This document shows positions 5,938 through 35,651 of a DNA stretch of 35,651 bases, one piece after another. Source of the DNA: Chiloscyllium plagiosum (lineage: Eukaryota). How positions within the stretch are numbered: the stretch's first letter is position 1; every line of letters begins with the position of its first letter. The position numbers and the translations under genes are program-made. Under the pieces are notes generated by a model that saw only the letters and a list, made by a program, of their open reading frames with translations, ran no database searches and was not told the origin of the DNA. The stretch is taken from NCBI RefSeq assembly GCF_004010195.1, contig NC_057752.1, forward strand, positions 62,001 to 97,651. Reading direction: 5' to 3'.

Positions 5938-6187
5938 CTAAAACACAAAGAAATTGCATGAGATATACACAATAAATCCTGCCTTAAGGTAGCAGTTTTC
6001 AGACATTGCTGCACTGGGGAAATAGCCATTTCCATTTGTAATACAAATAGCCATAGCCATTTGTAAATAGCCATTTCCAAGGACCCCCGTTATAAATCCA
6101 AAGGACAGTGCCAGTTACTCAAATAAAAACAATATAATTACTTCAGAGAATGTTGTGGTTCTGTTTGCCAAGCTGTGAATTTGTGTT

Positions 6188-6227
6188 GCAGATGTTTCGT
6201 CCCCTGTCTAGGGGACATCCTCAGTGC
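6188..6227 (-). ncRNA. hammerhead motif, inverted copy (PAN2 sense strand)
   Basis: gca CUGAGGA u guccccu-agac-aggggac GAAA ca UC ugc; stem III loop is ACAU instead of palindromic ACGU. Confidence 0.72.
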
Positions 6228-7450
6228 TTGGGAGCCTCCTGTGAAGCGCTGCTGTGTTGTTTCCTCCGGGATTTAGTGGTTTGTCTCTGCCGCTTTCGGT
6301 TGTCAGTTCCAGCTGTCCGTTGCAGTGGCCGGTATATTGGGTCCAGGTCGATGTGTTTGTTGATAGAATCTGTGGATGAGTGCCATGCCTCTAGGAATTC
6401 CCTGGCTGTTCTCTGTTTGGCTTGTCCTATAATAGTAGCATTGTCCCAGTCGAACTCATGCTTGTCATCTGCGTGTGTGGCTACCCGTTTTTGGCGAATA
6501 CATTGTAGAGGTGTTCTTCTTCCTCTTTTTGCAGTTCTGCACGCACCTGATCATCAACTCCACACTCACAGGAATCAGATTCACTGGAGAGGAAGAAAAG
6601 GACAACCAACTCCCATTCCTAGATGTGATGGTACAGAGAACACCGAACGGAGAATTCACCACAAAAGTATACAGGAAAGCCACACACACAGACCAAGTCC
6701 TGAACTACGAAAGCAACCACCCAAACACACACAAAAGAAGTTGCATCAAGACACTGTTCAAAAGGGCCACAACACACTGCAGTACACCAGAACTGCAAAA
6801 AGAAGAAGAACACCTCTACAATGTATTCGCCAAAAACGGGTACCCCTGCAATTTCATCAACAGATGCCTAAGGGAAAGACAACGGAATGAGGACATGCCA
6901 CAACCCAAAGGACTAGCCACGTTACCATACATCAAGAACATTTCTGAACTGACAGCCAGATTACTATGACCACTAGGACTCATAACAGAACACAAACCAA
7001 CAGCCACTCTCAGACAACAACTCACCAGGACAAAGGACCCGATACCCAGCATGAGCAAAACCAATGTAGTGTACAAAATCCCATGCAAGGACTGCACAAA
7101 ACACTACATAGGACAAACAGGAAGACAGCTAACAATCCGTATCCGTGAACACCAACTAGCCACAAAACGACACGACCAGCTATCCTTAATAGCCACACAC
7201 GCAGACGACAAGCAACAGGAGTTCGACTGGGACAACACTACTATTATAGGACAAGCCAAACAGAGAACAGCCAGAGAATTCCTAGAGGCATGGCACTCAT
7301 GCACAGATTCTATCAACAAACACATCAACCTGGACCCAATATACTGGCCACTGCAGCGGACAGCTGGAACTGACAACCGAAAGCGGCAGAGACAAACCAC
7401 TATAAATACCGGAGGAAACAACACAGAAGCGCTTCACAGGAGGCTCCCAA

Positions 7451-7490
7451 GCACTGAGGATGTCCCCTAGACAGGGGATGAAACGTATGC
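7451..7490 (+). ncRNA. minimal type I hammerhead ribozyme motif in PLE terminus
   Basis: gca CUGAGGA u gucccCU-agac-AGgggau GAAA cg UA ugc: core, stem II and 3-bp stem I present. Confidence 0.8.
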
Positions 7491-8472
7491 AACACAAATT
7501 CCCAGCTCAGCGAACAGAACCACAACAACAAGCACCCGAGCTACAAATCTTCTCACAAACTTTGAATACTTCAGGAGAATATTATTATGAATATTGCTGG
7601 TAAGTTGCATTTATCTGCTTTGATGGAAACTGGAGTCCAAGGAGGAAAAAAGGAATCTAAAGTGGTGGTGATTCAGAGAGAAAACCTTGACAACTACCAA
7701 CATATGACTTCTAAAAATGAAAAAAAGAGTCTGTCATATTTTACAACTGGCAATTGCCATTAGGCAAATTGGCATCTCCGCTTATTGAAATTTCACATCA
7801 TAAAATTGCACTTCCATTGGTCAGAGTTTTGGAAGGACTGTGGAAAGAATTTTAACATGGATATAACAAGGTCAACTGACAATCTGCCGGTATTTCATTT
7901 CTTAACATTGTATAAATCTAGCTTTTCCCCTCTAATAAAACATAATGCTGCAGTTGAGACAACAGCTTTATTTACAGCAGACTAAGCCACTCCCAGTACC
8001 GCTGCAAAAAACATCAGGCAGTGAAAATAACTGGCAGAAAAGGAAGGCAATCTTACTGATTTTTTTTCAAATAGTCATCATAAATTTAGATACTGATCCA
8101 TAAAAATGAAACTGACTACATTTTTTGGTAGTTGTAAGTTTAAGGCAGGACTGGGGCTGGGGTGATCACAAGTGTTTGGAACACGTTTCCTTGCAATTTC
8201 CTTCAGCATAATTTGAAGTACAAACTATACCAAATACTTCATTAATATATGAATTATAAAAGTATATTTTCAATTATATTAATGGCAATCCATGATTATC
8301 AACTGTTCATTAAAAGATTTATTTTGAAAAGGGAAGCAGATGGAATTTTGCTGATGAGATGTACTATAAATCGGTCAATAAATAACTTTTTTGCTTCTGA
8401 TAATACCACTGATACACTAAAATATGACAGTTTCAAGACCTGTTAATTTAGGAATTAGATCCATACTTATAC

Positions 8473-15004: not shown

Positions 15005-15560
15005 CATTAGTGCTCAAAGGGTTAAATAATGAGAGCAAGTTACTTCATCTGACCTTATAATTACTTGCTACACCGATTGCGTCTCTACCTCTGAGCAAGG
15101 AGGACTGGGTTTAAGTCCTACCTGCTCAGAGGTATGTCATAACATCTCTGAACAGGCTGATTAAAATACATCCATAATTAGAGTATAGAAGGTTGAGCAA
15201 TGATCTAATAAAGACATTTAAAATCAAGAGATTTGATACAATAAGTACTCCCAGATAAATTATTTCCGCTGAAGAGCTATACGGTACTCAAAATGTTAAC
15301 TGTTTCTCTCTCCACAGATGCTGCCAGACCTGCTGAGCTTCTCTAGCATTGCCATGTTTGTTTCAGATTTATAACATCTGCAGTATTTTGCTTTTATATA
15401 AATTATTTCCTTTCCTGAAGTAACCTAGAACAAGGGGGACATTATCTTCAAATACAGCCAGGCTGTTTAGCCACGAAATAAAGAAGAATTTTATTGCACA
15501 AAAGATAGCAAAAATACATAGCTTGCTTCCCAAGATGCTGGATACTGGGACCGTTGAAAT
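15005..15560 (+). mobile_element. degenerate CR1 fragment carrying two small insertions
   Basis: agaaggttgagcaatgatctaata...ctagaacaaggggga CR1 3' remnants. Confidence 0.6.
15064..15173 (+). mobile_element. short tRNA-derived element, monomer
   Basis: B-box-like ggtttaagtcc; flanked by a direct repeat ataatta at 15057-15063 and 15174-15180. Confidence 0.65.
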
Positions 15561-17880: not shown

Positions 17881-18577
17881 CTGGAACAATATACAATATC
17901 CAATCAACATAAACTTTCATTCAGTTCTGATGAAAGGTCAACCAGCTAAACGTAAACTCGGATATTCTCTCCACAGGTGCTGCCAGAACTGCTGAATAAT
18001 TTCAGAATTTTCTGTTTGTATTTCTGGAAATGCAATAGGTTGACTTGTAACAATGCACAATACTTTTTGCGATAATGCCACAAATGTATACAATAGTTTT
18101 GACTTGGTTGAAAGACCCCAGAAACATCCCAAGCATCTGACCATACACTATAGCCCGTTACTTCAGAGCATTGCTAGCAATTAAGACATTGCTTATTTTT
18201 ATAAATTTTTGGAACCAATTGTTATTTTCTGTAATGTTCCTGCTATATTTAAATATAAAATGTTTAAAAAGTGGATGTCTTGACAAGTTGTAAACTGAAG
18301 TAATTAATCAAGCAATGTGGACTTTCAAGAGTTAGAGAATCTTTATTCCCTCTCAAAGCTGAATGTACATAGCTTTGTTTTAATTCCTATAATAGGAATC
18401 CAATTTAAATGCACCAAAATCTTTCCATTAGCTATATTATCAAGAAGTCCACATTTCTTGTACTTGGAATTCAACCCAAATGACACATTTTCACGAGCTG
18501 CACTGCAAGCAGTGGAACAGGCAAATCAGTTCAACGTTTTACACAAAAGGATGACACCTCTGACAACAGAACACATC

Positions 18578-18774
18578 GGAGGAGAAAGTGAGGACTGCAG
18601 ATGCTGGAGACCAGAGTTGAAAAATGTGGTGCTGGAAAAACACAGCAGGCCAGGCAGCATCCGAGGAGCAGGAGAATCGACATTTCGGGCATAAGCCCTT
18701 CTTCAGGAAAGGCTTATGCCCGAAACGTCGATTCTCCTGCTCCTCGGATGCTGCCTGGCCTGCTGTGTTTTTCC
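18578..18774. mobile_element. short fold-back PLE-terminus insertion (copy A)
   Basis: inverted arms meeting at ~18709; imperfect target duplication acagaacacatc / acaaaacatatc. Confidence 0.85.
18677..18709 (-). ncRNA. minimal hammerhead motif (PAN2 sense strand)
   Basis: uuc CUGAAGA a gggc-uuau-gccc GAAA ug UC ga. Confidence 0.7.
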
Positions 18775-19500
18775 ACAAAACATATCCACAAAAGTAAACT
18801 TGAAGTAAAAACAGAAATTTCTGGACAGCAGGTCTGGCAGCATCCATGGGAAAAAAAAGTGCAGTTAACATTTTGCACCCACTGACTCTTTGTCAGAACT
18901 GTTAGCAAGTAGGGAAAGGTGGTATTGATGCTGAAGCCGAAGTTATGGTGGCAGGGACGGAAGAGGCGAGCAGATAGGTGGAGTGGAACCCAGGGAAAGA
19001 GAGATAGATATGAAAGGAGTAGGTAAAGAAGGAGATTATGGATAGCAGGCCAGGACAGACAATAAAGCTGAATAAGTGATAATAAGAGAAAGTGAGTGAG
19101 CTCTGCTGAATACAATCATATAATATGATAACGGGCCTAGGAGTACACAAGGAGGGTGACTTGTAGCACAGTGACATAATCTCATAACAGAACCAGGTAT
19201 TGGGTGGGTAAAATCATAGGAAGATAGATTCAGGCTCTGAAGCCATTGAACTTGATGTTGAGACCTAGAGGCTGCAAGATCCCCAAACGGAAAATGAGAT
19301 GTTGTTCTTTGAGCTTGCACTGAGGCTCCCTGTAATACTGCAGCAAGCCTGTAACATAGATACTAACCAGGGAACGTGGTGGGCAACTGGAAACTCAGGG
19401 TCATTTGTGTGGAAAAATGTAGGTGTTCTGCAAAGCGGTAACCCAGTCTGCGTCTCGTTTCCCCAATGTAGAGAGACTACACTGTGAACAGAGAATACAG

Positions 19501-19706
19501 AGCTGGAAATGTGTTGCTGGAAAAGCGCAGCAGGTCAGGCAGCATCCAGGGAACAGGAGAATCGACGTTTCGGGCATAAGCCCTTCTTCAGGAATCATGT
19601 CCGAAACATCGATTCTCCTGTTCCCTGGATGCTGCCTGACTTGCTGCGCTTTTCCAGCAACACATTTCCAGCTCTGATCTCCAGCATCTGCAGACCTCAC
19701 TTTCTC
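19501..19706. mobile_element. short fold-back PLE-terminus insertion (copy B)
   Basis: perfect 14-bp target duplication aacagagaatacag at 19487-19500 and 19707-19720; inverted arms. Confidence 0.92.
19561..19595 (-). ncRNA. intact minimal type I hammerhead motif (PAN2 sense strand)
   Basis: auuc CUGAAGA a gggc-uuau-gccc GAAA cg UC gau; all core nucleotides, 4-bp stem II, palindromic ACGU; stem I only ~2 bp. Confidence 0.8.
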
Positions 19707-20732
19707 AACAGAGAATACAGTAAACTAGATTGAATGTGAAGTACAGGCAAATCCTGGAAGGTATGTGTGGGACCAAGGAGAGGGGAGGTAAATGGGCAAC
19801 TATTACACCTTTGTGATTGCATGGGAAGGTACTGTGGGGTGGGTGAGTGAGGAGATGTTGGGAACAGGGAGGAGTGAATCAGATTGTCCCAAAGGGAACA
19901 GTCCGTGTGAAAAGCTGATGAAGGAAGGAAAGGGAATGTGTGTCCGGTCATGGCATCTCATTAAAGGAGACAGAAATGAAGCTTACAATCCTTTGGACGA
20001 GAAGGCTGGTGGGGTAGTAAGCGAGGACCAGGGGATCCTATCACTATTGTGGGAGGGAAGGGAAGGGGTGAGAGCAGAAGTGTGGGAGATGTGTAGACCT
20101 GTCAACCAAAGTAGCAAGGAATCCTCAGTTAATGAAAAAGGTGGACATTTCTGAGGATCCCTGTGGAAAATGGCATCGTCAGAACAGATGCAATAGAGAT
20201 GGAGAAATTGGGAGAACGGGATAGAGTTCTTAGAGGAAGCAGGGCGTGAGGATGTCTAGTCCAGATAACTTGGTGGCCAACCCAACCCCAGAAATGGAAA
20301 CAGAGATGTCAAGGAAGGGAAGGGAGCAGTCGGAGATGGACTAGGTGAAGGTGAGAGCAGGATGGAAATTGGAAGTGAAATTGATAAATTTTTCCATTTA
20401 GGAATGAGAAAGGGAAGCGGTACCTGATGATGTCATTAGTGTACCAGGAAGAGCTGGGAGGAGGGACCAGAGTAGGACTGAAACAAACAATGTTCCACGT
20501 ACCTCACAACACAGACAGGCATTACTGGGGTCCATGCAGGTACAAATGTCCACAGCTTTGACATGAAGAAAATGAGAGGAGTTAAAGAAGAGTCCCAAAG
20601 TGAGGATGAGCTCAGCCAGGCAGAGAAGAGTGGTGGTAGATGGGGATGATTCAGGCCTTCTTCCCAGGAAGAAGTGGACAGCCCTTAGACCATCTGAGGG
20701 GGTAGAGGGATTACACATCCATTGTGATGATA

Positions 20733-20950
20733 CTAGGAGAAAGTGAAGGCTGCAGATGCCGGAGATCAGAGTCAAAAGGCGTGGTGCTGGAAAAGCACAG
20801 CCCGTCAAGCAGCATCTAAGGAGGAGAGTTGATATTTCGAGTTAATGCTCTTCACATTCCTGATGAAAGAACTTAGGCTTGAAACGTCGACTTTCCTGCT
20901 CCTTGGTTGCTGCCTGACCGGCTGTGCTTTTCCAGCACCACACTTTTTGA
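20733..20950. mobile_element. short fold-back PLE-terminus insertion (copy C)
   Basis: 13-bp target duplication cattgtgatgata at 20720-20732 and 20951-20963; + strand CTGATGA...GAAACGTC at 20860-20888 with a damaged stem II. Confidence 0.9.
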
Positions 20951-20953
20951 CAT

Positions 20954-21593
20954 TGTGATGATAAAGCTCCTTTAAGGTTGTGCTGTACTTGGATTTTTTT
21001 CAAAAGTGTTTTACGACACAGCTTCCGGTTTGTCTGGCTTGACCTACTTGAAGAAGCTTTTAAGTATTAAAAAAAAACTTGTACAATATAGGGGTGTGGC
21101 CAGTTCTCCCAGCTCAGTGTTTCTCTGGTTTGATTCAGTTCTGGATTTTAGCAGTCTGACCGTTCAGAGCAAGCAGTCAGTTTTGAGGCTGCTGGTCAAA
21201 GAAACAGCTACATGGAAGAAGGTGTTCCATGCTGAATCTCTCTGCTATCTCTCAGTGTGTGACACCGCTCCTGTAAGACCCTGTGTTTGATTTTACCTTT
21301 TGTGCCAAGGGGTGTTTATGGGCATTGTTGCAGGTATTAGGAACAGCATCATTAAGTTGGGATAGTCTGTTTAGTTTTTGGATAGGTCAAGTTATTTTAT
21401 ATTCTGTTCTCTTTTGTTCACGCTTTATTCAGTAATCTTGTAAATAAATTCTGTTTTGTTTAAAAGTAAGTGGTAGGGCCAGTTGCAGCCCTCCTGGAAT
21501 ATCCACATTACACCTGCTTAAAACAACTAGCAAAATTAGGGTCCAGGCTACTTTGTTGAAATGTTTTGAGGGGGCCTGGCCTGGTCCATAACA
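20954..21593 (+). mobile_element. solo LTR (Gypsy-like, 4-bp target duplication)
   Basis: TGTGAT...ATAACA termini; ccat at 20719-20722 and 21594-21597; AATAAA at 21443; the host PLE RT motif rejoins across it. Confidence 0.8.
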
Positions 21594-22959
21594 CCATGCT
21601 GAAGAGGAGGTGACTGCTGCCCGCAAACTGGAAATTTTGAAATTGACGGAAAGTGTCAGAAGAATCACAGATGTAACTGGAGAGGGTCTAGATAAGGGGA
21701 GAAGAAAAAAAAAGAGTCAAGGTAAAAGAAATAAACTGTGGGGCAGGAACAACGGGTGTGCCCAGGCAATCCTGCCTGTGGATTGTGGGAGAAGGTAGAA
21801 GCCGGCTGTATGGGCTTGGAGGAATATGAGCTGGGAGGCTGTCATGGGGAGATCCCAGATGAGATTAGGTTGGTGATAGTTGTGGAGATAGTGGTCTAAT
21901 GCTCAATGGTGGGATTATGGTCCAGGGGAAGATAGGAGGAGAACGCCTATGTTCTGTCCGCAAAAATGAGCCTGAACTTCCAGTTGCCTGCAACTTTGAC
22001 ACACCACAAACGTTCCCAGGCAAACATTTCTGTTGCAGGCCTGCTGCAGTGTTCCAGAAAGTGTCAGTGTCAGCTTGGAGAACAAAATCTCATTTTATGC
22101 TAGAGGACCCTGCAGCTTTTAGGACTCAAGTGGAGAGAGTCATTCTATCCTCGCATAATTTTTACCTACCTCATAGCCAGTCCTGTTATGACCTGGGCTG
22201 CAGTCACCCACTCATTACTGTAATAATGTGCCGAGCAGTATGATAGGTTGCATTCAGTACAGCTCATCCCTTTTCTCTTAGCTCTTATTATCACTTCATC
22301 AGCTTTTCTTCTGCCCTGGCCTGCTATCCATAATCTGCTTGTTCACCTACCTTTCATATCTCTCTTTTTCTGAGCTCCATCTCCATCTACCACCTTTTCC
22401 AAGCTGCTAACAGTTTTAAGAGTCACTGGAAGCAAAATGTTAACTCTGCTTTTCTCCCCCACAGATGTTGCCTGACCTGCTGAGTTGTTCCAGCAATTTC
22501 TGATTTTGTTTCAGATCTCCAGCAATTGCTGTTGTTTGTTTTACTAAACTTAAGTGTCAGCTAAGATAGGTGGCATATGATCCATGAGGTTAGATTGCTG
22601 TTTTTAGCTTTGTGTTTTTTTAAAATATTGACTTAAAAATTGAACTTTTATAAGTCTGATGGTGAGTGAGCTATACCAAGATTCTTGTGACAGGACATCA
22701 GCACAATACATCATAAAAGTTCTAGAGGGAAAATGCTCACTCAGTAGTTAACTGAAAATGTAACCTTGTATTGTCAACTCACCAAAAGTAAAAGTTATAG
22801 AAGTTAAAGACTGTATCATAATGCATGCTTCACAGGACAATTTGTTGCAGGAAAGTTTTGAATATTTCCACAGTCATGAGTTGCAAGCACAATAACCAAT
22901 TACTGCAGACTCTATGCAAGAAATGCTACAGCATTGCGTGGAAATATATTTTAAAAAAT

Positions 22960-23395
22960 CATTTTTATATAGTGAGCATTTAGGATCTGGAACACATTGT
23001 ATGAGAGTGTGGTGAAGGCAGATTCAATTGAGGTAACCAAGAGAAAAATGGTCCAACATATAATGAGTCATGTATAGAAGGAGGCAATTTTGTCTGCTGT
23101 GTCTGAGCTGGCCCTCGAAAGAAGAAATTCACCAAGTGCTACTACCTTGTATTTTCCCCATAGCCCTGGAAATCTTTCCTCAATTTGGGCTTCACTGAAA
23201 TATGAAATCAAGTATCTGGATTTAGATGCCAAACTGCTTACCATTACACCATGGAACACATGGCTGTAAAGGAAGGACATTCAGGGATACAGGAAGGCAA
23301 CAGGAGATTGACACAAGGTGACTTGCTTCGGAAGATTAGTACAGACAGAACAGGCCAAATGGCTTTCTTTTGTGGTGTAACCATTCTATGATTTT
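22960..23395 (+). mobile_element. CR1 3' remnants (interrupted)
   Basis: gatctggaac...gtggtgaaggcagattcaattgagg and ggccaaatggc...ccattctatgatt tail. Confidence 0.55.
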
Positions 23396-23863
23396 ATATA
23401 CAATATTATTTCATTATGCAAACACAGTACAGTTAATATATTCTAAACGTAACTAGACAAACCCCTCAAAGTTTCTTTGATGTTTTTAAACCATGGCCTG
23501 TTCCGGTTCATCAAGTTACTCTCTTCCAATTTGATCCAGTATTCCTTTCACATCATACATTACATCAGGTCATGGTATAATTTTCATTTACTACGCAGCT
23601 CCTGATGAATAAACCAAGACTTCACGAGCTGCAAATTTCCCTCAGTCCAAATGTTGTACACTAGAAGTTAAATGCTTTCAGACGCAGTCCAGATGCACAC
23701 TTTCTCATTAGTTTTCTTTCAATCAACTACACACCATAAAACTTCCCTTCATACACATTTGAATACAATGAAATAATTTGTTCACAACACCTACTTGCCT
23801 TGCTACTTTTAACTCCCCTCTATTTAGCTTCCTATTAAAAGAATTAAATACAAATATACTAAC

Positions 23864-23970
23864 CGTAGGTTGGTATTTCTCACAGTTTTCACACCAGGCC
23901 TGGGTGTTCTGTTCAAGACAAATACTTCTCTTCAGCACTTCAGCAAACTCATACTGTCGAATACTTTTGT
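23864..23970 (-). CDS. PAN2: PAN2 internal exon
   Basis: tttag|AC...ACG|gttagt; 107 nt, (D)KSIRQYEFAEVLKRSICLEQNTQAWCENCEKYQPT. Confidence 0.95.
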
Positions 23971-24311
23971 CTAAAGTCAAAAACGCATTTTATGGATATA
24001 TTCAGTAAAAGATTGAGGTCAATCGATTTGTAATTTTTCAAACAGCTCTGAATTAACAGTACAGACAAAGCAGATATTTCTCCTCTCACAATATCAACTC
24101 CTGCTCATTGTAAATTTTGCTTTTTTTGTTTACAACAGATAATTTTCTGTTTCCATCTTGTTCAAAATCTTATTTCTGATATTTGAATTTTTAGGAAGTG
24201 GGAAAACATAGGAATAACTTCTGTTTCAAACGGAGTGATTCGATTGGTGCTTTTTAAACTGATCATTGGTAGGTTCTTCCAACTAGTCCTTCAATATTGG
24301 TTATCTACACG

Positions 24312-25546
24312 TGTTATGATCCCAAGCTGATGTTATTACCAGACAAGTCAGACCCCAGACAAGAACCTGGCTTGATAAATCATATTTTGATTTGTTTTAG
24401 CATTAACAAAAAGAGGTCTCTCACTGAAACATAAACACGCAATGCTGCAAATCATGTTTCAACAAAAAAAATTGATTAACAAAAGATAAAATAGAATAAA
24501 CCAAACCATCTACTTATAATACAAAATCAATGCTGTTTTAAACACATAATAAAAGTATAATTGCAAAACATTCCTTTTATAATTTGAAAAGAAAAAAAAA
24601 AAAAACAGCTTTTGTATAGTACCCAAAATTTACCTCTGGTTCAGTACCCAAAGTACCACTAGTACAATACTCACACCAGAATCCCTGTATCTAGCACCTT
24701 GGTGGAAAGTACTATATGCCTGAGCTTATAGGATTTTATCACAACCTTTCTGGTCTGGGACTAGCACTTACTCATCACTGTAATGTAACTAGCTCACTAT
24801 ATATTCTTCTCTCTTCAGGAGCACTAATCTACACAGTCTAGTCCAAGGATTTGACAGGACTGCTCAAAATTCAAAAGTGAAACCAAAAGTCTCTCTCTAA
24901 GCTATGGGCACCACATTACTCCTTTTTTTAAGAAAAAGTTCCAGCTGTTTCTAAAAAACTGCACGGTCATTTTATCTAGCTCGTTGTATCACAAAACATT
25001 GTAAAGTAAACAAAACAAAATCCATTAGTGGTGCATATAAACCCATTCACTCTAAAAGGAGACAGTGAGGACTGCAGATGCTGGAGGTCAGAGTTGAAGA
25101 GTGTGGTGCTGGAAAAGCACAGCCGGTCAGGCAGCATCCGAGGAGCAGGAGAAGTTGGCATTTTGAAATGAAGAGCTTATGCTCGAAACATAGACTCTCC
25201 TGCTCCTCAGATGCTGCCTGATCAGCTGCGCTTTTCCAGCACCACACTCTTCGACCTCATTCACACCTAAGGCAGACCTCAAAAACTGTTTAAAAGAAAT
25301 CACCATAACTACAGATGTACAAGTTAATTACTAACTCAAAACCAAACTCAAACTTATGCTCTCGCCCTTCATAATTTCTCCAACAGTTTTCTAGCTACTA
25401 TCCTTGCCTCTGATTTAGATGTTCTGCAGTTCTTTGATTCTAATTTAATGCAAGTTTAATCAAAAAATAAAAACAACAAGTATTATAAAAAGCCAGTGAC
25501 TAATAGGAAATTTCCACCATATTATTAGGAACTCTCCCATAACGTG
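24312..25546 (-). mobile_element. possible old solo LTR
   Basis: starts TGTTATG, ends near CATAAC; its terminus is similar to 11502-11537 in reverse; right boundary uncertain. Confidence 0.35.
25058..25257. mobile_element. short fold-back PLE-terminus insertion (copy D)
   Basis: same arms; imperfect duplication cattcactctaa / cattcacacctaa; hammerhead truncated (atgaagagcttatgctcgaaac). Confidence 0.85.
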
Positions 25547-26442
25547 GACATGAGAAGACAATCTTCAGGTGGAGAGATAATTGGATCAGGAAGCACAGGT
25601 GTAATTTAGCTCTCATCCTAAAATAATCCATTATTATTTCTATATAATACTTTGATTTCTCATTCTATGTAGTTTAATGGCAAAGCATGTGGCAATTTGG
25701 AAATGCGACAGTCTGTTGGTACTTTGGATTTTCTCCATAGTACAAGCTGAAAAGCTTGGAGACTCTGAACTGAGGCACTAAAATGTGGTCACGGGTAGGA
25801 AGGTGTAATCGCTGTATGTTAAGCTTTTATGCAGAGCTTTCATTATAAATATAGGCACATGCATTTATAAATATGACAAGATGACAGGCGTGCAAACAAG
25901 ACTTTTCAAAATATTACAGATAGTAAGTAATTTTGAGACAGCCACACTTCAGGGTTTACCAGATTATCTGTAAAATTTGTATCACCCTTGAACAAAGTAC
26001 AAAGAATAATACAAGTACTTTACTGTTAATACATTTTGACTTTAAAGAGACCCTGGAAATCTTACAAGTAGTTACTAACCTATTGAGAAAATTGACTTCG
26101 TAGGGGCTATGTGGGCCAAATGACCATTGAATTGTACTATTCTATGATTTGAACTCAGAATGAACTCAATGGGAATAAGCTTGTAAGTGTATGTCCTGTT
26201 ACAGTAATCAAACTTTGTGGCTGTAAAGCAGAGTGCAACATGCTATACAACACTTACAATACATATTCTAACTCACAACAAGAAATGCCTCAAGAAATCA
26301 AATTTATCAATATGAAGCTTTGAGAACGTCTATCATACTCCAGACATCATGCTTCAATGTGTCAAAAGTATAAGGATATCCTGAACTGCAAGGGAAAGGT
26401 AAGGCAATTTCTGAGACCCATTATTCTCTATGCATTACTCAC

Positions 26443-26591
26443 CAGCATTTTTCATATCAGGATACTGCAAAGTGAAAAGCAGACTCGAAGAAACCCGAAC
26501 AGTTTCTTTTCCACAGCGACAAGTGCTACAATTCTCAACTTCACAACCAAACAGCTTCCCAATCACAGATTCACCAGAAGATCCAAATGTA
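26443..26591 (-). CDS. PAN2: PAN2 internal exon
   Basis: ttcag|T...G|gtgagt; 149 nt, (S)TFGSSGESVIGKLFGCEVENCSTCRCGKETVRVSSSLLFTLQYPDMKNA. Confidence 0.95.
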
Positions 26592-26649
26592 CTGAAATTA
26601 AAAAGTGATAAGATTTTAGAGTATTGCGTTTTAAATAAAATGGTACATA

Positions 26650-26850
26650 CAGTCACTTCTTCAATAACATGATTGCTGTGTTCTTGTTCAACCCCACGTT
26701 ATAGAAAAATCACACTTTAGAAATGGCAATATCATGTTACAGCCAACACACGTTTTAAAAGTTCGCGCTTTAGAAACAGCGTCCCCAATTTGTCAATCAC
26801 ATTACAGCGAATTCGCATTGACAAAATGTGCATTATAGCAGAACGACCTG
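26650..26850 (-). mobile_element. Tc1/mariner-type MITE (copy 2, inverted relative to copy 1)
   Basis: TA on both flanks; reverse complement begins caggtcgttctgctataatgc and aligns with copy 1 along its length. Confidence 0.82.
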
Positions 26851-26963
26851 TATTGTACTTCGTACAAATAGTGTCATTAACCTTTAGTAGCACATTATTG
26901 CATATTTCCTGTTCTGTACAAGAATTTATAAATCTGTACAAGTTCTAGTTTAAGCCACATTAC

Positions 26964-27163
26964 CTCCCCATGACATTTCGATAGGCCTGTGGGCCCTCCT
27001 GCTCCTGTGTCTCCTGGTGTAGTTGTGTCAATATAAATCGATTCCAGCTCTGTATGAGACGGCCCAAATTCACCTTCCCAGTTGCTTCATCAGAATCAGC
27101 CAAGATCAATCCCAAAGCCGATGCTTCTGGAATAGTTCGGAAAGCACGAAGGAAATTGCTGGC
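26964..27163 (-). CDS. PAN2: PAN2 internal exon
   Basis: gttag|GCC...AG|gtaatg; 200 nt, [66 protein letters not shown], ends in phase 2. Confidence 0.96.
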
Positions 27164-27595
27164 CTAACAGAGTAAAGGAAAAAGAAAAAACAGGATGTTG
27201 CTTTTCTCCTAATTTTCATCCATCCAGAGCTTAAAAGTAGAACGTGTTAGGTTCAGAAGAAATAGGTGACTCTATAGATATACTCAAGCTGAATTCCATG
27301 TGGTTCTCTTTCCTTCAAGGTAAGCCATGGCAGTAGCATAAGGGAAAATAGGCTTAAAGTGCTGGAATTCTACTAAAGGGCTCAATTACCTAATCTGAGA
27401 TGTCTACACCTAAAATATGTATTTTTCGATTCTCTTTAAGATGAAGACAGATTCTCTGCATGTTTCCAGTACGTTTAAATCAGGGTAAGTTGACATAAGT
27501 TTTAAAAAATATTAGATGCCATAATCGAAGGTTTCTGGATTAATGGATGAACCATGATGGAATGAAAATGTTTCTTGATGTTGTAGAGCTGGGTC

Positions 27596-27612
27596 TATCG
27601 CCACCTGTTGGT
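27596..27612 (-). promoter_or_regulatory. candidate CTCF site
   Basis: ccaacaggtggcgata resembles the CTCF core CCASYAGRKGGCR; motif match only. Confidence 0.35.
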
Positions 27613-27689
27613 ATCTGCAAGCAGAGCATTTGCCTTTTTAAGATGGTTGGATTTTTGTGAAGTAACAGTCATGCATCCCTTGTCTGCAG

Positions 27690-28305
27690 GATTCCAGGTT
27701 ACTCAGACCCCTTGGCATCATGGTAGCCCACAAACCTACCAACACACTTAAACAGTGACTAATTAACCAAAAGGATCCATTAGATACTACCAGCAAAACT
27801 AATGTCATTTACAAGATACCATGCAGGAACTGTAAAAAAAAACACACATCGGAGTAACTAGCAGGAAACTTGCCACCAGGATACATGAACACCAACTAGC
27901 CGCCAAAAGACACTACCCACTATCACTAGTTTCTATACATACAGACAAAGCAGGGCACCACTTTGACTAGGACAACATACACATCCTAGGACAGGTGAAA
28001 CAAAGAACACACAAGAATTCTTAGAGGCATTGCATTCTAACCGGAACTCCATCAATAAACACATCGATTTAGACCCTATATACCTTTCCTTGAAAAGAAG
28101 AAAAACTGGAAATGATATCACCCACCTTAAGAAACCAAAACCTATAAATAGAGAGGTGGGACATACCACCAAGGCTTCATCGGAGAGTCTCACTGATGTT
28201 ATTTGGTATGGTGATGAAACATTTGAAAACAAACCTTCCAGCTCAGTGAGCTAACTTACATACTTATCATCAACCTGACCTACAAATATTCTCAAAAATC
28301 GTTAA
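27690..28305 (+). mobile_element. degenerate Penelope-like element 3' part
   Basis: NVIYKIPCRNC...RIHEHQLA...FLEALHS..NSINKHIDLDPIY, related to 7000-7560; decayed hammerhead at 28191-28225. Confidence 0.85.
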
Positions 28306-28659
28306 CTTATAAGCATTTTCATGATTGCTTTCCTTATTTGTTTAAATATATTACAAAATGTTTTCTGGTTTTGGTCAGCCATTCATCAAGAATGTACAAA
28401 AAATATCCCCATACAGAAGTGTCTCCAAAGCAAACTACTCAAAGACACACAACAGTTTCCTTCCCTAATACGTGCACGCTCTCCCCTTATTGGGACATAA
28501 TACTCCACTTCCGAAATTCACAGATTGGTAAGAGTGAAAAGATTAGAGCGTGTCAAGTCTGCACTAAGTTACTGTTGGGAGTTTAACCATACAAGACTGC
28601 ACTGCAGTACATGCTTCCAGCTTGTGCTACATTAGGACTCTTGTTAAGACTGTTTTTTG

Positions 28660-28930
28660 AAAAAAGGGTGTGCTAATCTTGTTTGTGGAGATTTTGCTGC
28701 ATTGCAGACCACCTCTCCTGGGAAAACACTGCAGCTGACCATCCCTTGGTTCAACATTTTTGGAGGACCACATACACCAAAGTCACAATATCTGACAGAT
28801 CCAAAGAAAGTATAGAGGCAATGCAGGTGCAGAAACTCACCCAAACACGAAACAACATAAATTGCCAGTTTTGCCAACATCCATGGATAGCACACATTAG
28901 AACCTTCAGTCAACGGAGGACCCAAAGATG
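28660..28930 (+). mobile_element. possible RTE-clade LINE 3' remnant
   Basis: SWENTAAD and a terminal cacattagaaccttcagtcaacggaggaccca resembling the RIGL.SH.RTH zinc knuckle. Confidence 0.35.
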
Positions 28931-28934
28931 ATGA

Positions 28935-29870
28935 AGAAGTCATTGCAGTGCTGAGGCTTCAATACTTTTACAATTATTTACGTGACTTGGATGAAGGGGC
29001 CAAATGTACAGTTGCTGATGCCACAAAGATAGGCATGAAACTAAGTTGTGAAGAGGATATAAAAAGGCTACCAACAGTGAGTGGATAAAGTGGCAAATGG
29101 AATATAATGTGGAAAATGTAAAGCTGTCCATTTCGCAGGAAAAAAACTTTTTAAAAAACATATGACCTAAACTGTGACAGATTGCAGAGCTCGGAGATGC
29201 AGACAATCCAAGTGCATGAATCACAATGGTTTATATGAAGGTACATTAAGTAATTCGGAAAGCTAGCAGAATGTTAGTGTTTACTGCAAGGAAATTGAAT
29301 ATGAAAGTACGGAGTTTATGTTTCAATTATACACAGTATACTGATGAGAGCACATCTGGAATACTGTAAATAGTATGCAAATCTCCTTATTTAAGAAAGA
29401 ATGTAAATATGGTGGAAGGAGTTCAGATAATGTTTGCTCGACTAATGTCTGAAATTGGCAAGCTGTCTTATGAGGAAATGTTGGACAGCCTAGGCTCATA
29501 ATCCTCTGGTGTTAGGAAGAATAAGAAACAACTTGATTGAAAGATACAAGATTTTGAGGGTTCTCGAGGGTGGATGTGGTGATATCTCTCCTTATGGCAG
29601 AACTTAGAACGAGGGGTCACGGTTTAAAAATAAGGAGTTGCCCACTTAAGATGAGATTTTTTTTTTCTTTTAGATGACGGAGTCTTTGGAACGCTCTTCT
29701 TCAAAAAGTGGCACAACTGGAGTCTTTGAGTATTTTTAGGCAGAGATAAATAGATGTTTGATACACAATGAGTTGAAACGTTAGTCGGTGGGAATGTGAG
29801 TTCAGCCACGATCTTACCAAATGGCAGAGCAGGCAAGGGGCTACATGGCTCTAATTCGCACATTCATATA
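28935..29870 (+). mobile_element. degenerate CR1 LINE 3' part
   Basis: ttgctgatg.cacaaagatagg (FADDTK-like), catctggaatactgt and tail remnants. Confidence 0.8.
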
Positions 29871-31799
29871 TAAAGTCTGGACATAAACAATGAGAATTCA
29901 ACTGCTATATAGGACCATTAGATTCCTGGGATTTCCTGGCTATATTGTGACAAAAAGAAGAATTCCAGCCATATAAATCCATTTTCTATTAAGAAGCCAG
30001 GTAGCTGGTTAATCATGAACAGCACCCAAGGATACTGCAGGCCCTTCAGACTCACATATCAGATTATCAAATTCACTGAAGTTCTGATCTTCCATTGCTG
30101 TATCACCTTGGAGGCAACTCCCAAAATTAAACAACATACAAAAAAAAATCAATGGACTAAGAAAAAAAATTACAGAACAATGCACAATAACTCCACTGTA
30201 AAACTGCAGATGGTGCTGTTGAGTTTAATAGCAAATTCAGCGCCATCACTGTTTGCAAAGTGGTTTTTAGAATTAACAATTATGCAACTGTAATGTGAAA
30301 TATAATAACTGCAAATAACATAGTATAGAATATGGGAAGAAATCTTAACCAGAAGAGGAGTCGCACGCTCAAGTCACAATTGTTGAAAATTTGTGAATAC
30401 CTTGTGAAATACGAAAGAAAATTCTAGAAACATACAAGATTTCATTCATCAGAATGTTTTCAGCTGAGTTTGGAACACAGCTTGCAGTAAAAATGAGAGC
30501 AACAATGCCAAAATATGGTCATGTTGTATTGCACAATGCGACAAGACAAAATAGATAACTATCCTGCTACTTCCAATCACAAAATAAATGTTTTACTGAG
30601 CTGAGAAGTTTGACGTTTCACCATAGGTACAGGTATAGAAGGAAATCTAGAGAAAATAATTTTTCTACTGGTCTGTGTTTGTTCGAAAGAAGCTCGATGG
30701 TAATGGCCTACAATTGGTTGAGCCATTCTCTGACCTGTAGGTGGCTGCAGATATGACAGGAAAGAAAATAAGAGACTAACATTGTTCTAAAATGAAATTT
30801 GATTGCAATGATCATATAGAAACAGTGGCAGTCTGTTTTTAAAAATTGAAAACATTAAGCAAACCATATAGCATCTGAAAGGTTAACATTTATTGAGTGA
30901 GACCCTTCAACAAATTGCAAAATATTAGGTTACCATTATCTTCTGGCCATTGATTAGTGCTATTTTCCATTTTAACTGCAGAACGTGGCTGTGGTTGGGT
31001 ATTTCACTTTTAAAGCCAATAAGACATTTACTAAATTCACAAACATGCAGTGTCAAAAAAAATACTTCACTGAGTCAGAACAGAAATATCACGCATGAGT
31101 GTACATTTCCAGAATTACTCTCACTACTTGTCTGCGGGTTGTGTCACTAGATGTCACAAACAAAAGTCGTTCCAAAACTTATTCTCCCATGTTAATTAAA
31201 TCATGTATTTCAGAACTATAATGCCAGTGCAACATTAAACTATGTCTAACCAATATATTTGTGACAGGACTTCATCATTAAATTTTCAAACATTTTAATC
31301 ATAACTAAATATATTTTAAATAGTTTAACATGGTGGTCAGGCACAGAAATATAGTCACACAAGACTGCGGAGATTTTTGAAACAAAAGAACAGGCAAACC
31401 AAATAAATAAAATCTAAACCAAATATAGAACACAGTTTTAAACATCTTAAAACATGCAGCAAAAAAAGTTTCAACCGGTTTCTTGATACCACTCATTACA
31501 GAGATTAAAACCTGAAGAAATTATCCCTCTATACCAAATTAAAGTTTTACTTAACCAATTCTCCCCAGTTTCAGATCTGTGAACTTCTTCTTACGTGAAT
31601 ACTCACAAAACTGAGCTTAAACTTACTCCACATTTAACAACCTTCAGATTTTCTAAGCAAAGCAAACTAGATTGAACGTTTCAGAGACTAACTTTTCTAT
31701 TGATTTGGTGCTCTCCCTGAACTGTCCTATGTTTCTTTCTAGGAAAGCAAGTACATTTGTTTCAGACCCCAGTCAGATTTCCTCCGAACTCAATAGCTA

Positions 31800-32090
31800 A
31801 AGTCTTTTCCCCAGGGTAGGGGAGTCCAAAACTAGTTTTAAACACAGGTTTAAAGTGAGAAGGATTTAAAAAAGAGACATAGGATGGTGCATGTATGGAA
31901 ATGAGTTGTCAGAGGAAGTGGTGGAGGCTGGTACAATTAAAACATTTCAAAGGCATCTGGATAGGTACATGAATAGGAAGGATTGAGGAATATGGGTCAA
32001 ATGCTAGAAAATGGGGCTAGATATCTTGTCGGCATGGATGAGTTGGACCAACGGGTCTGTTTCCATACGATACAGCTCTATGATTCTATG
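31800..32090 (+). mobile_element. CR1 3' end
   Basis: gaggaagtggtggaggctggtacaatt...ctctatgattctatg tail. Confidence 0.85.
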
Positions 32091-33016
32091 CTGCAAAAAT
32101 TTTCAATCTCTGGATTGTTCTAAACTCAAATCAATTCTGTATTATTCTGAATTAGAAACAAGCTAATTGCCTTCAATGGTTACTCTACCTGTCATAATCC
32201 ATCACAGTATAAACATCTTACTTCATTAACATTCCAGAGGTTTGCAATCACCTGCTTTCTGGCAATATACTCGATGAGGTCACTGTTTCAGAAGGAAGTT
32301 GACCTTGTTTATTTTTGTTTTTAAATTTCACATAAGTAACCACAATAATAACCAACCTATATGCCACTATTGTGAAATCCATACTCTAAAAATGATTAGA
32401 TTTCCAACCTCATTCCCAAAAACAGTTCTGAAGAACCACACTGCGCTCGAAACTAACTGTTTCTCTCTCCATAGATGCTGCCATACCCGTTGTTTGTTTC
32501 TAAAAATCTACATATGCTTATATCTTTCACCACAGAAGGAAGAGATTTAAGCGAAGAGAAAAACGTGTGGATCAGACTTAGTTTTTGTGTTCTGACTCTT
32601 CTGAAAACAAACAAAAAGCACTTGCCTGTTGTTTCTAGAGACACTGACAATTTCAAAGTGCTTATAGTAGTTTCTGTTTAAGATTTTCAACATTTGTAGT
32701 TTTTTGCTGATTATTTAAAATATGCAAAAAGTGGACAGCAACTCTGGTTAACAAGGTACATTTGGAACAACCAAAAACATAGGTGGCATGAACAAAGACC
32801 TAACCCAAGTGGACACAAGTAACATTCCCTCCAAGGTATACAACCTCAAAGTGCCTACACAGGCCTCTTTAACTCACCATCCCTGACAGATTTTTTAAAA
32901 ATTCAAGGGTTGGACACTTAACAAATTGCCAACCTACCCAAAAAAATATTTGAGGGAACATTGGAGACGCAAAAAATCCATCTTACAAGATCTAGACTGG
33001 CTCAGTAATCATTTAC

Positions 33017-33145
33017 CTGGCATGGGTCACCTCTCGAAAGATCGAGCATGTGAAATAGGAATCCAAGTTCACAGCCCAAGCAAAATTCCTTCTGACATAG
33101 ATGATTCTGAACATGGCAGCGGATGGGCTCCAGCAGATACAGCAC
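33017..33145 (-). CDS. PAN2: PAN2 internal exon
   Basis: tatag|GTG...CAG|gtaaat; 129 nt, VLYLLEPIRCHVQNHLCQKEFCLGCELGFLFHMLDLSRGDPCQ. Confidence 0.96.
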
Positions 33146-34160
33146 CTATAACAAATGAAGAGTGATAGACAAAATGAAAATGCACATATTTGAGGTAAAT
33201 CATGAAAATATCACAGAGATCTATCTTAAAATTGTAAATCACGCAGCATGACAGATGCTGTTTCCAAGAAATGGAAGAATTTCCATATCAGGTATTCAGA
33301 GTTTCATTAGGTACTCCCAAATTAGATACAGAGAAAAGTGCCCCTACCTTGTCCAAACAGTATGCCCTATCCCCACAAGTGTGGCAGAATTTTTCTTCTT
33401 TTTAGACCTTTAGAAATCAGACTGACAAACTAATCTAATGTTTTTTTTTAAATGGGACATTTTGATTTTGTTGGTCTGGACGGGACACAAGGCCAGAAGA
33501 AATTGGACTGAGATGGCCAAAATCATTTCACTTAGATCTCTCACAAGTTGGCCAAGAAGTTAAATAGTAAGCCACATGGTATCATCTACTCCTAGAATTG
33601 ATCAATAATTTGGTCTCTGGCTTGCCTGTCTACTATACAACCATCTACCAGGATGTATCTTGGTGTGGTTCTGGTTAATTAACCTGATTTCCCACTTTCT
33701 TCCTGCATGTGCGGCAACATCTAGACTTTGTTTACTCCCTAATCACTTTCAGCTCCCCATCGAGAATTGGGAAATAGTAGTGAAGTAGGAAATCATGGGC
33801 ACAAAACCAGATCTGTCCTTTTTAACTTGGTACACTTGTTCCATAGAACCAGGCCATCAATTCACAGTAAACAAATGGCGTTTGAAATAATTTTTAAAGA
33901 TGCATTCAGTATCTAATGTAATAAAGACATGATAGAGTGTAGTTTCCTTTGCTAATTCCAATCTCAAGCTGTTTAGTAATTTAATCAGCAATTTTCCTCC
34001 ATGTCCATGGAGGAAATATTTGGGTTCCACTGAAAACATTTCTTCCTTCTTGCAAATTATGCAGCTACGAGAAAGTCGGTGTTGGAACAAATCCATATTT
34101 TACTAATATATACACACAGTATGGTGAAAGCACAACTGCACTAGACATAACATTCATTTA

Positions 34161-34324
34161 GAGTCAAAAAGTATGGTGCTAGAAAAGCACAGCAGGTCAG
34201 GCAGCATCCAAGGAGGAGGGTCGAATGCCCGAAACGTCGACTCTCCTGCTCCTCAAATGCTGCCTGACCTGCTGTGCTTTGCCAGCGCCACACATTTTGA
34301 CTGATCTGCAGTCCTCACTTTCTC
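34161..34324. mobile_element. short fold-back PLE-terminus insertion (copy E)
   Basis: 15-bp target duplication cataacattcattta at 34146-34160 and 34325-34339; only the 3' half of the hammerhead (atgcccgaaacgtcga) remains. Confidence 0.9.
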
Positions 34325-34619
34325 CATAACATTCATTTACACCAGCGAAGAATGAAGCACTGTCCAAAGAAACAAAACTTCAAGACAAGTAACTTAAATT
34401 AACTTAAAAAAAAAACTAAAGCTAGAAGTAACGACAGTTTGAATTCAAATATTCCCCATTCTGCACATTAAGCAAGACAAGTTATCACTTGCATGGTCAC
34501 ACATGTACATAACATTCTTAAAATCATATTTCTTGAATTAGACAAAAAGAGTATCAACATATGGTACAACAGGATGATAGGATGCAAGATCAGTTCCTTA
34601 CTTGCTAAAATCAAGGGTT

Positions 34620-34845
34620 TGGTTTATAGCTCAGTTGATTGAATGGCTGGATCGTGATGTAGAGTGACACCACCAGCATGATTTTAATTCCTGCACCAGC
34701 GGAGGTTACCATGAAGGATTCTCCTTCTCAACCTCTCCCCTCACCTGATGTGTGGTGGTCCTCAGGTTAAATCACCATTAGTGATCTGTCTCTAATAAGA
34801 CAGCAGCCCTACTGTCTGGTAAGACTATGACAATTTTTACAGTTT
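34620..34845 (+). mobile_element. tRNA-derived SINE
   Basis: A-box-like tagctcagttg, degenerate B box, tttac-type tail. Confidence 0.6.
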
Positions 34846-34961
34846 TACCTTGATTTATATTTGCTAACTTTGTAGATTTCAATTAACTTAAAACCAGAAG
34901 GTGATAAAAGAAAAGTGTGGAGAATGATAAGGTAATGAGAGATTGGAAGAGTGTCCCTGAC

Positions 34962-35081
34962 CTGAATCATACAGTTGCAGTAAGCATTGGGAATGTGTGG
35001 CTCCAAACCTGCAAACAGCGTCTTGTTGTAGTGTTTGAAATCAAAGTCTTCTAAACCAAGTTTTGAGTATTTTATAGTAAC
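34962..35081 (-). CDS. PAN2: PAN2 internal exon (start of pseudo-USP domain)
   Basis: tttag|GTT...CAG|gtcagg; 120 nt, [40 protein letters not shown], matches vertebrate PAN2 as recalled. Confidence 0.96.
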
Positions 35082-35454
35082 CTAAACAGAAACATGTACA
35101 ATTAATCAAACTGCTGAACGATTTAGGCAGAGATCAAATATTTCACATAATTCATCATTAAACTGATACTTAAAACAAAAAAAAACAAGCAATTGCACAT
35201 TTTTGGTGTAAAAGATGTAGACCCAAAGGCTTGGTACAAATTCCAAGGTTAACAAAAGGTCTAAAGTTCTAGTTTAACTTGAGGATACAGCCAACACCTC
35301 CAGAAATAATCGCTCCCTTACAAAACTCAAAATTCAGGGCAATCTCCCTCAATGACCCATATCCTCTTCTGTGAGCTTCCATTCAAGAAGATTTTAAGAC
35401 TGTACAATCTTCTTGCTCCAGGGCTGAAAGCATACAAAACAATATAATCAAATA

Positions 35455-35651
35455 AGAGCTGAAAATGTGTTGCTGGAAAAGCGCAGCAGGTCAGGCAGCA
35501 TCCAAGGAGCAGGAGAATCGACGCTTCGGGCATGAGCCCTTCTTCAGGAATGAGGTAAGTGTGCCAAGCAGGCTAAGATAAAAGGTAGGGAGGAGGGACT
35601 TGGGGGAGGGGTGTTGGAAATGCGATAGGTGGAAGGAGGTTAAGGTGAGGG
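35455..35651 (-). mobile_element. terminus of a longer PLE of the fold-back family, running out of the window
   Basis: same arm as copies A-E; hammerhead at 35517-35551 has GAAG in place of GAAA; continues into UTR-like sequence that is purine-rich on +. Confidence 0.85.

Follow-up and report, generated by a model that had tools for sequence, protein, structure and literature searches.

Inverted, tail-asymmetric insertions of Penelope-like elements (PLEs) and the minimal hammerhead ribozymes carried by these elements are both already published. In the accessible portions of the accounts of endonuclease-bearing (EN+) PLEs, the inserted unit consists of a pseudo-long terminal repeat (pLTR), an adjacent inverted copy truncated at its 5′ end, and a tail of 30–40 bp at one end only (PMC8557442; Pen2a_Av in PMC3846280). 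The available text of PMC4209133 describes opposite-strand pairs of minimal hammerheads 100–700 bp apart in Schistosoma. Here, we examined a 35,651-nt stretch of the 3.56-Gb genome of Chiloscyllium plagiosum (NC_057752.1:62001–97651; hereafter the window, within which coordinates are given), which is rich in fragments of CR1-like long interspersed elements (LINEs) and PLEs and contains five short insertions, each made of two inverted arms. Judged by their sequence, these insertions, which we call minis, are the shortest insertions of a Neptune-type PLE, and the arm is the PLE terminus. Such double-ended copies of a PLE terminus are real and abundant, and they were probably made by double nicking of the target and double priming on one capped, uncut RNA. 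As far as the EN+ unit is described in the available text, the shark family shares with it the head-to-head arms, a one-sided tail (~36 nt), a target duplication, a reverse transcriptase (RT) followed by a GIY-YIG domain, and partial tandems; it differs in that its commonest form lacks an open reading frame (ORF) and spans 90–250 bp, in a pile of 5′ ends with a preceding G, in the single tail of 41/41 pairs, and in duplications of 14–16 bp as against 8–10 bp in the Adineta examples.

The sequence-only reading of this DNA had proposed five inserts composed of two inverted arms with a one-sided tail. All five were present at the proposed coordinates, their arms were 87–97% complementary where listed, and a tail of ~36 nt was found on one arm of each. 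Three of the proposed target duplications proved perfect (14, 13, and 15 bp) and another spans 12 bp with 2 mismatches, whereas the one around 25058–25257 is imperfect. A hammerhead had been placed at the centre of the inserts; copies 1 and 2 passed a minimal-hammerhead scan, while the core was decayed in copy 3 and the CUGA box was absent from either arm of copies 4 and 5. In the list below, element positions are counted from the A of TCATTCC (+1), so that the hammerhead CUGA box begins at +5 and the predicted ribozyme cut falls after +32.

18566–18577 and 18775–18786: target duplication of mini insertion 1, 12 bp with 2 mismatches
18578–18774: mini insertion 1; the minus strand carries the tailed arm (+131 to +2), which meets the tail-less arm of the plus strand (about +14 to +78) head-to-head
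18679–18706, minus strand: minimal hammerhead core of copy 1, with CUGA box, extra A, 4-bp helix II, and GAAA; one C-to-T change before GUC
19487–19500 and 19707–19720: target duplication of mini insertion 2, 14 bp, perfect
19501–19706: mini insertion 2; the minus strand carries the tail-less arm, which extends to +1, and the plus strand the tailed arm, which begins at about +19
19564–19591, minus strand: intact minimal hammerhead core of copy 2, from the minimal-hammerhead scan
20720–20732 and 20951–20963: target duplication of mini insertion 3, 13 bp, perfect
20733–20950: mini insertion 3; the minus strand carries the tailed arm and the plus strand the tail-less arm, which begins at +1 (20856)
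20860–20888, plus strand: decayed hammerhead core of copy 3, in the tail-less arm
25058–25257: mini insertion 4; the minus strand carries the tailed arm, which extends to about +23, and the plus strand the tail-less arm, which begins at about +8; CUGA box gone; duplication imperfect
34146–34160 and 34325–34339: target duplication of mini insertion 5, 15 bp, perfect
34161–34324: mini insertion 5; the minus strand carries the tail-less arm, which extends to about +31, and the plus strand the tailed arm, which begins at +19; CUGA box gone
35455–35651, minus strand: tail-less inverted arm of a longer insertion by the same element, extending upstream of +1 into the 3′ untranslated region (UTR)

Mini insertion 3 is older, with arms 13.5% apart. 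The longer insertion at 35455 measures 1,745 bp in total, spans 1,304 N past the window, and carries its tailed partner arm at the far end; its 14-bp duplication, with 2 mismatches, starts at 35441. The five copies differ at subfamily-diagnostic sites and so do not form a single family of clones. In one search of the genome, 1,196 candidates were obtained, and the 40 that were scored yielded 80 matches, which is not chance. Copies 2 and 3 lie between inverted 120-nt repeats (19258–19377 and 22010–22129; 74% complementary, 2.6 kb apart) that flank a purine-rich stretch resembling an old antisense Neptune body.

A search with the sequence upstream of the hammerhead showed that, in longer copies, the arm is preceded by a GIY-YIG frame with a C-x4-C-x2-C finger before it. 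In the available text of PMC8557442, a C-x2-5-C-x2-C finger before a C-terminal GIY-YIG domain marks Neptune, and also Nematis. At one locus (L188), a single frame of 494 codons (with 35 X where it crosses an N run) takes in RT motifs, endonuclease, and terminus. The locus as a whole is one insertion with matching flanks and duplication, in which these parts are accompanied by a tail-less arm in inverted orientation, the 3′ UTR, the hammerhead, and the tail. The expectation that a PLE RT/GIY-YIG ORF would be found joined to the arm terminus was thus borne out. In other copies, an ORF starts ~37 nt past the tail, near +168, and the arm terminus is also present upstream of the ORF start, which is the pLTR or partial tandem feature of EN+ PLEs; the further hallmarks of that group, namely an optional 30–40-bp tail at one end, an inverted 5′-truncated copy, and a target duplication, were found as well. 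The RT-endonuclease fragment gave zero sequence matches in the PDB at E up to 1. Longer inverted insertions (L051–L080, L181–L188) very often carry an N run between their arms, and the element is therefore under-assembled in this genome; longer copies often coincide with N runs of the assembly.

We next consider abundance and ends, which were recorded in 134 fixed-position 10-kb stretches (1.289 Mb excluding N). A pair was counted only if its duplication score was at least 8, and a mini was defined as a validated pair of no more than 250 bp. Matches to other PLE families were left out by motif (3/140 in one set, with a like filter in the main sample), as were 14 loci of the arm-divergence set (duplicates, larger palindromes, or another family) and 2 pairs with an open 5′ end; one mini resembling another PLE family (L224:8553) was retained. 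The sample contained 226 arms and 41 head-to-head pairs with a duplication, 30 of which were minis, giving genome estimates of ~600,000 arms and ~80,000 minis (54,000–114,000). The high abundance suggested earlier held, at 23 minis per Mb sampled, but the five in 35.6 kb amount to ~6 times the sampled average. The 3′ ends of the arms were bimodal, lying near +95 (tail-less) or +131 (tailed), and each of the 41 validated pairs had one end of each kind, for which independent choice gives P ~3e−13 (120/222 arms tailed). Duplications measured 14–16 bp in 31/41 pairs, and the perfect ones (n = 22) were all 13–16 bp. Single-arm copies were likewise flanked by duplications. Some larger palindromes (L081:1389–1652, L096:528–646, and L100:80–418) have two arms with like ends and a flank that is mirrored as well; these form a class apart from the minis.

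An insert that is short and non-coding, with long inverted repeats and a fairly narrow range of duplication lengths, resembles a miniature inverted-repeat transposable element (MITE) of a DNA transposon. Against this, the ends were asymmetric in 41/41 pairs, the longer copies run into an RT/GIY-YIG frame, and single arms carry duplications, so that a MITE origin has practically no chance of being correct. The sequence-only reading had also taken the inserts not to be DNA MITEs, which stands on both of the counts that it named, as the ends are asymmetric and a PLE ORF is joined to the terminus. The minis are neither MITEs nor a separate ribozyme family.

The arms contain the features of PLE minimal hammerheads: the core boxes, the extra base after position 9, helix II, and a palindromic 15.2–16.2. 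In the available text of PMC4209133, the metazoan motif likewise has CUGA and GAAA boxes, an extra base between 9 and 10.1, a closing G-C pair, and an ACGU palindrome for helix III, whereas helix II has 7–8 bp in Schistosoma and 4 bp here. The sample contained 93 cores, in which the four pairs of helix II were standard or G-U in 85, 91, 86, and 91 cases; the loop varies, and changes on both sides of a pair were almost absent. Rfam searches gave no match to a hammerhead family, whether in the window (E up to 1) or in 201 bases (E up to 10), which is expected because the motif has almost no helix I or III; the best Rfam matches to the window were microRNA models below the cut-off. Helix II formed in single-strand folds, for which the z-score was not significant.

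The 5′ ends of the arms pile up at +1, 4 nt before the hammerhead core. For the 226 arms, 85 ends fell at −10 to +10, 48 at +11 to +40, 21 later, and 45 further upstream, while 27 were open (N run, edge, or end of the reference). When exact copies of one subfamily motif were counted over the genome, 9,630 extended upstream, and in 5,033 a non-C base stood before +1; this base is G in 3,017 of the latter (60%), versus 26% expected by composition. Upon inspection of 30 loci, 20 had the G, and in at least 4 of these it matched neither the target nor the partner arm. In most of the others, the G belongs to a short match with the target or partner. Both this and the excess of G would be expected if the cDNA finished with a C opposite a cap. 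By contrast, when pattern counts were compared with neighbouring positions, 5′ ends were not in excess at the predicted ribozyme cut (109 copies, vs. 131 and 82 at two and four bases further on); in one place (G000:C60630:670–798) the cut-start pattern occurs thrice, 48 bases apart, as a short tandem. Taken together, the pile-up at +1, the G excess, and the absence of an excess at the cut make it likely that the usual template is capped at +1 and uncut, and we infer from these ends that +1 is a capped transcription start. For Drosophila Penelope, an internal promoter with the transcription start inside the pLTR is described in the available part of PMC2377424. One set of reads of unrecorded kind contained joints from ORF-start positions back to +1, one of them with an intervening G. 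The hammerhead appears to be a passenger on the uncut template; all that follows from the absent excess is that the template was not usually cut RNA, and self-cleavage of the motif is a prediction here. While PMC4209133, in its available text, proposes cleavage and circular templates, the ends observed here point to an uncut linear RNA.

The two arms of an insertion resemble each other more than they resemble other arms. In the 70 pairs, out of 74, that could be measured, partners differed by a median of 6.4%, versus 12.4% for comparisons with other arms. Lengths were also matched: both arms were short in 30 pairs and both long in 5, with 4 mixed and 2 dropped (Fisher p = 7e−4). At two loci (L194 and L218), both strands shared an unusual start (−111, −30) as well as their junction. 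We infer that one RNA molecule serves both strands. These pairings also bear on a rival reading of +1, which keeps the PLE origin and the two primed strands but takes +1 to be the foot, on the 5′ side, of hammerhead helix I, at which a 5′-to-3′ nuclease stops or the RT stalls at the folded, protein-bound ribozyme. The +1 position does coincide with the 5′ strand of a short predicted helix I, folding of a PLE hammerhead is aided by protein (PMC11167929), and an RNA start was not seen in reads. Trimming or stalling nevertheless leaves the 60% G before +1 unexplained, and a stall should affect every template, yet long arms mostly partner long arms; a pause at +1 on every RNA is likewise disfavoured by the tendency of arms to have a partner of their own length class. 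The sequence TCATTCC, which we take to match the vertebrate initiator consensus, was also counted against the nuclease or stall, and we consider this rival unlikely.

A further possibility is that a single cDNA folds back at the near-palindromic front of the hammerhead and copies itself, or that a circular, hammerhead-cleaved RNA is the template. Self-priming has been hypothesised for Adineta PLEs and a circular template for hammerhead-bearing PLEs (PMC3846280 and PMC4209133, in their available text). Several observations are compatible with one or the other, as the junctions often use short complementary words at +2 to +14, the arms have private variants in common, and a circle would account for the identical junctions on both strands at L194 and L218. 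When the reach of the arms was compared in the 30 minis, however, the tail-less arm extended further 5′ in 12, the tailed arm in 8, and neither in 10. Fold-back copying is disfavoured by this result because a copied tail-less arm could not outreach its tailed template. A circle is opposed by the partial tandems described below, in which no strand crosses a junction twice, one 3′ point has two upstream partners (L208), and the junctions lie away from the ribozyme cut. We regard fold-back and circular templates as very unlikely.

The partial tandems (terminus, ORF start, terminus) were collected from 30 loci chosen by an ORF-start query, which yielded 21 distinct examples; the remainder were two repeats and seven loci without a visible ORF-to-pLTR junction (L193, L204–L207, L212, and L217). 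In 12/21 tandems the downstream copy starts at +1 to +4 (at +1 in 9 after shared bases were assigned), and in 9/21 the upstream copy halts within 1 nt of the same start, which it passes in none. No strand crosses one junction twice in the 21 tandems. At L208, one 3′ point (about +525) is joined to two different upstream points, and at L197 three joins follow in succession. The tandems likely reflect a linear RNA, whose cDNA would run off at the 5′ end, jump via 0–3 shared bases to the 3′ end, and recopy the RNA; a circular template fits them poorly. Jumps of this kind from +1 to the RNA's 3′ end are a possible route to pLTRs.

With ~80,000 copies and one junction type that recurs, the minis might instead be a self-propagating non-autonomous family with an internal promoter, transcribed from +1 and mobilised in trans like a short interspersed element (SINE) or a retrozyme. 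Given the internal Penelope promoter (PMC2377424, in its available text), solo arms could be transcribed, and their products would be indistinguishable from those of the full element. The recurring junction, however, occurs in several subfamilies and in both orientations, and the arms follow the subfamilies of the long elements; the RNA past the tail in the tandems is the ORF start of the element (though the tandems were selected for it), and +1 has been lost from many minis, with no arm starting by +10 in 7/30. Retrozymes, moreover, are direct tandems in the available text of bioRxiv 10.64898/2026.07.22.740005. A self-propagating family is, in our judgement, highly improbable. The related proposal of a distinct, ribozyme-driven non-autonomous family is not supported either: centre junctions differ across the 30 minis, whose arms belong to several long-element subfamilies, 2/5 copies in the window lack the CUGA box, and 5′ ends are not in excess at the cut. 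As for the non-LTR retrozymes of the same source, the available text presents them as non-coding, pLTR-derived sequences with a type I hammerhead in a cartilaginous fish, as the minis are, but as direct tandems with at least two complete hammerheads, whereas the minis are inverted pairs whose core is often broken.

The inserts were also compared with three named classes. Symmetric terminal inverted repeats and a transposase partner, as in MITEs, were not found, the partner being RT/GIY-YIG; neither was a direct array with at least two complete type I hammerheads, as in non-LTR retrozymes, the inserts being inverted pairs with often truncated cores; nor was a shared master structure including the centre junction, as in a SINE-like family.

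We therefore return to double priming on one capped, uncut RNA as the probable origin of the minis. The PLE protein, presumably acting as a dimer, would nick both target strands about 14–15 bp apart, and each nick would prime DNA synthesis on the same capped, uncut RNA. Synthesis of one cDNA would begin at +131 (tailed) and that of its partner at +95 (tail-less), and both would run off at the first base of the RNA, +1; two strands copying the same 95 bases would suppose displacement without RNase H. The new strands would then presumably anneal through a short stretch at their 3′ ends, each serving as template for the other, and leave a palindrome with one tail and a target duplication. Use of start sites near the cap would give a mini, and use of those at the far end a longer inverted insertion. 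The minis would accordingly be “strong-stop” by-products made anew at each insertion by every subfamily, and the same cDNA may sometimes jump from +1 to the RNA's 3′ end and continue, giving partial tandems. The scheme is read from DNA alone, namely from the PLE origin, the two 3′ end sites with one of each per insertion, the duplication length, the +1 pile-up, the G excess, and the absence of an excess at the cut.

The enzymatic steps resemble those of a purified PLE protein from Anolis, which cleaves and extends both strands, begins synthesis at two internal sites that delimit the tail, works on uncut RNA, and is a predicted dimer (PMC11167929). That element, Poseidon_Ac, shares with the shark element the two internal RT starts bounding the tail, the cleavage and extension of both strands in vitro, and an uncut RNA substrate; it differs in belonging to the Poseidon clade and in an ORF that starts inside the hammerhead. 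The main text of PMC11167929 describes no inverted double products, run-off at the 5′ end, or jumps. At L212:1420–1482 (+49 to +111), a predicted long-range helix pairs GATGCTG with CAGCATC around the +95 start site and is a candidate protein-bound RNA element, although it was not significant against shuffles.

Several observations weigh against this interpretation. The Pfam scores of the coding region are under the curated cut-offs (GIY-YIG, E = 0.00066; RVT_1, E = 0.0031); N runs interrupt the element, and the ORF start and RT were not seen in one continuous copy. An intact full-length ORF was not found among the longest frames of 150 scored endonuclease matches or at 8 loci, where the long frames are N runs. 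The 5′ pile spreads over neighbouring bases in the sample (9 arms at −2, 14 at +2), most of the inspected G lie within microhomology to the target or partner arm and so are not visibly extra, and the first small sample had no G excess (10/47, with copies continuing upstream mixed in). Single-cell reads did not support the start site; they cover both strands, with no point where many molecules begin. One RNA per insertion is not universal, as 4/39 pairs are mixed and the arms of L209 start at +1 and +47, and the similarity of partner arms could come partly from gene conversion or from one subfamily being active at a time. Finally, the tandem set is small, was selected by a query demanding ORF-start sequence, and has no full-length example.

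In LINE-1 twin priming, two target nicks are used on one RNA, and in retroviral minus-strand strong-stop synthesis, a short cDNA runs off the capped 5′ end and is able to transfer to the 3′ end. The parts inverted by twin priming do not overlap, whereas here both strands would copy the same 95 nt, with target DNA rather than a tRNA as the primer. It is conceivable, though we would put it somewhat short of an even chance, that a target-primed strong-stop step underlies PLE replication in general, with a dimer, double priming near the cap, and then either annealing to the twin strand or a jump and recopying of the whole RNA. If so, one scheme would yield the tail, the inverted arm, and the pLTR, the terminal repeat would be regenerated by a retrovirus-like strand transfer, and neither chance tandem insertion nor circular RNA would be needed for PLE pLTRs. 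A literature search, whose range excluded Repbase, Dfam, most subscription papers, and supplements, found no account of the minis, a cap-linked pile-up, or PLE strand transfer. The minis are probably no more than dead by-products, but the ends of the arms discriminate between these views of PLE replication and make them directly testable, with predictions that suit the existing Anolis in vitro system. The minis are also liable to be mis-annotated as MITEs or microRNA hairpins.

The window contains other repeats of similar kinds. At 6151–7527 lies a second, unrelated PLE insertion of like plan, with inverted arms 93–96% complementary, each containing a hammerhead whose helix II has 7 bp, a tail at one end only, and an imperfect ~15-bp duplication; it is presumably Poseidon-like, and a zinc finger was not seen there. 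A decayed 3′ part of a related PLE, with a GIY-YIG remnant and terminus, occupies 27700–28290. Old single arms at 15270–15395, 17925–18010, 18815–18890, 22420–22545, and 32425–32490 represent at least one further PLE family and have a GATGCTG...CAGCATC frame in common with the mini family. Between 15083 and 16755 there are six diverged copies of an 86-nt unit, five of them within 800 bp, with a SINE-like look.

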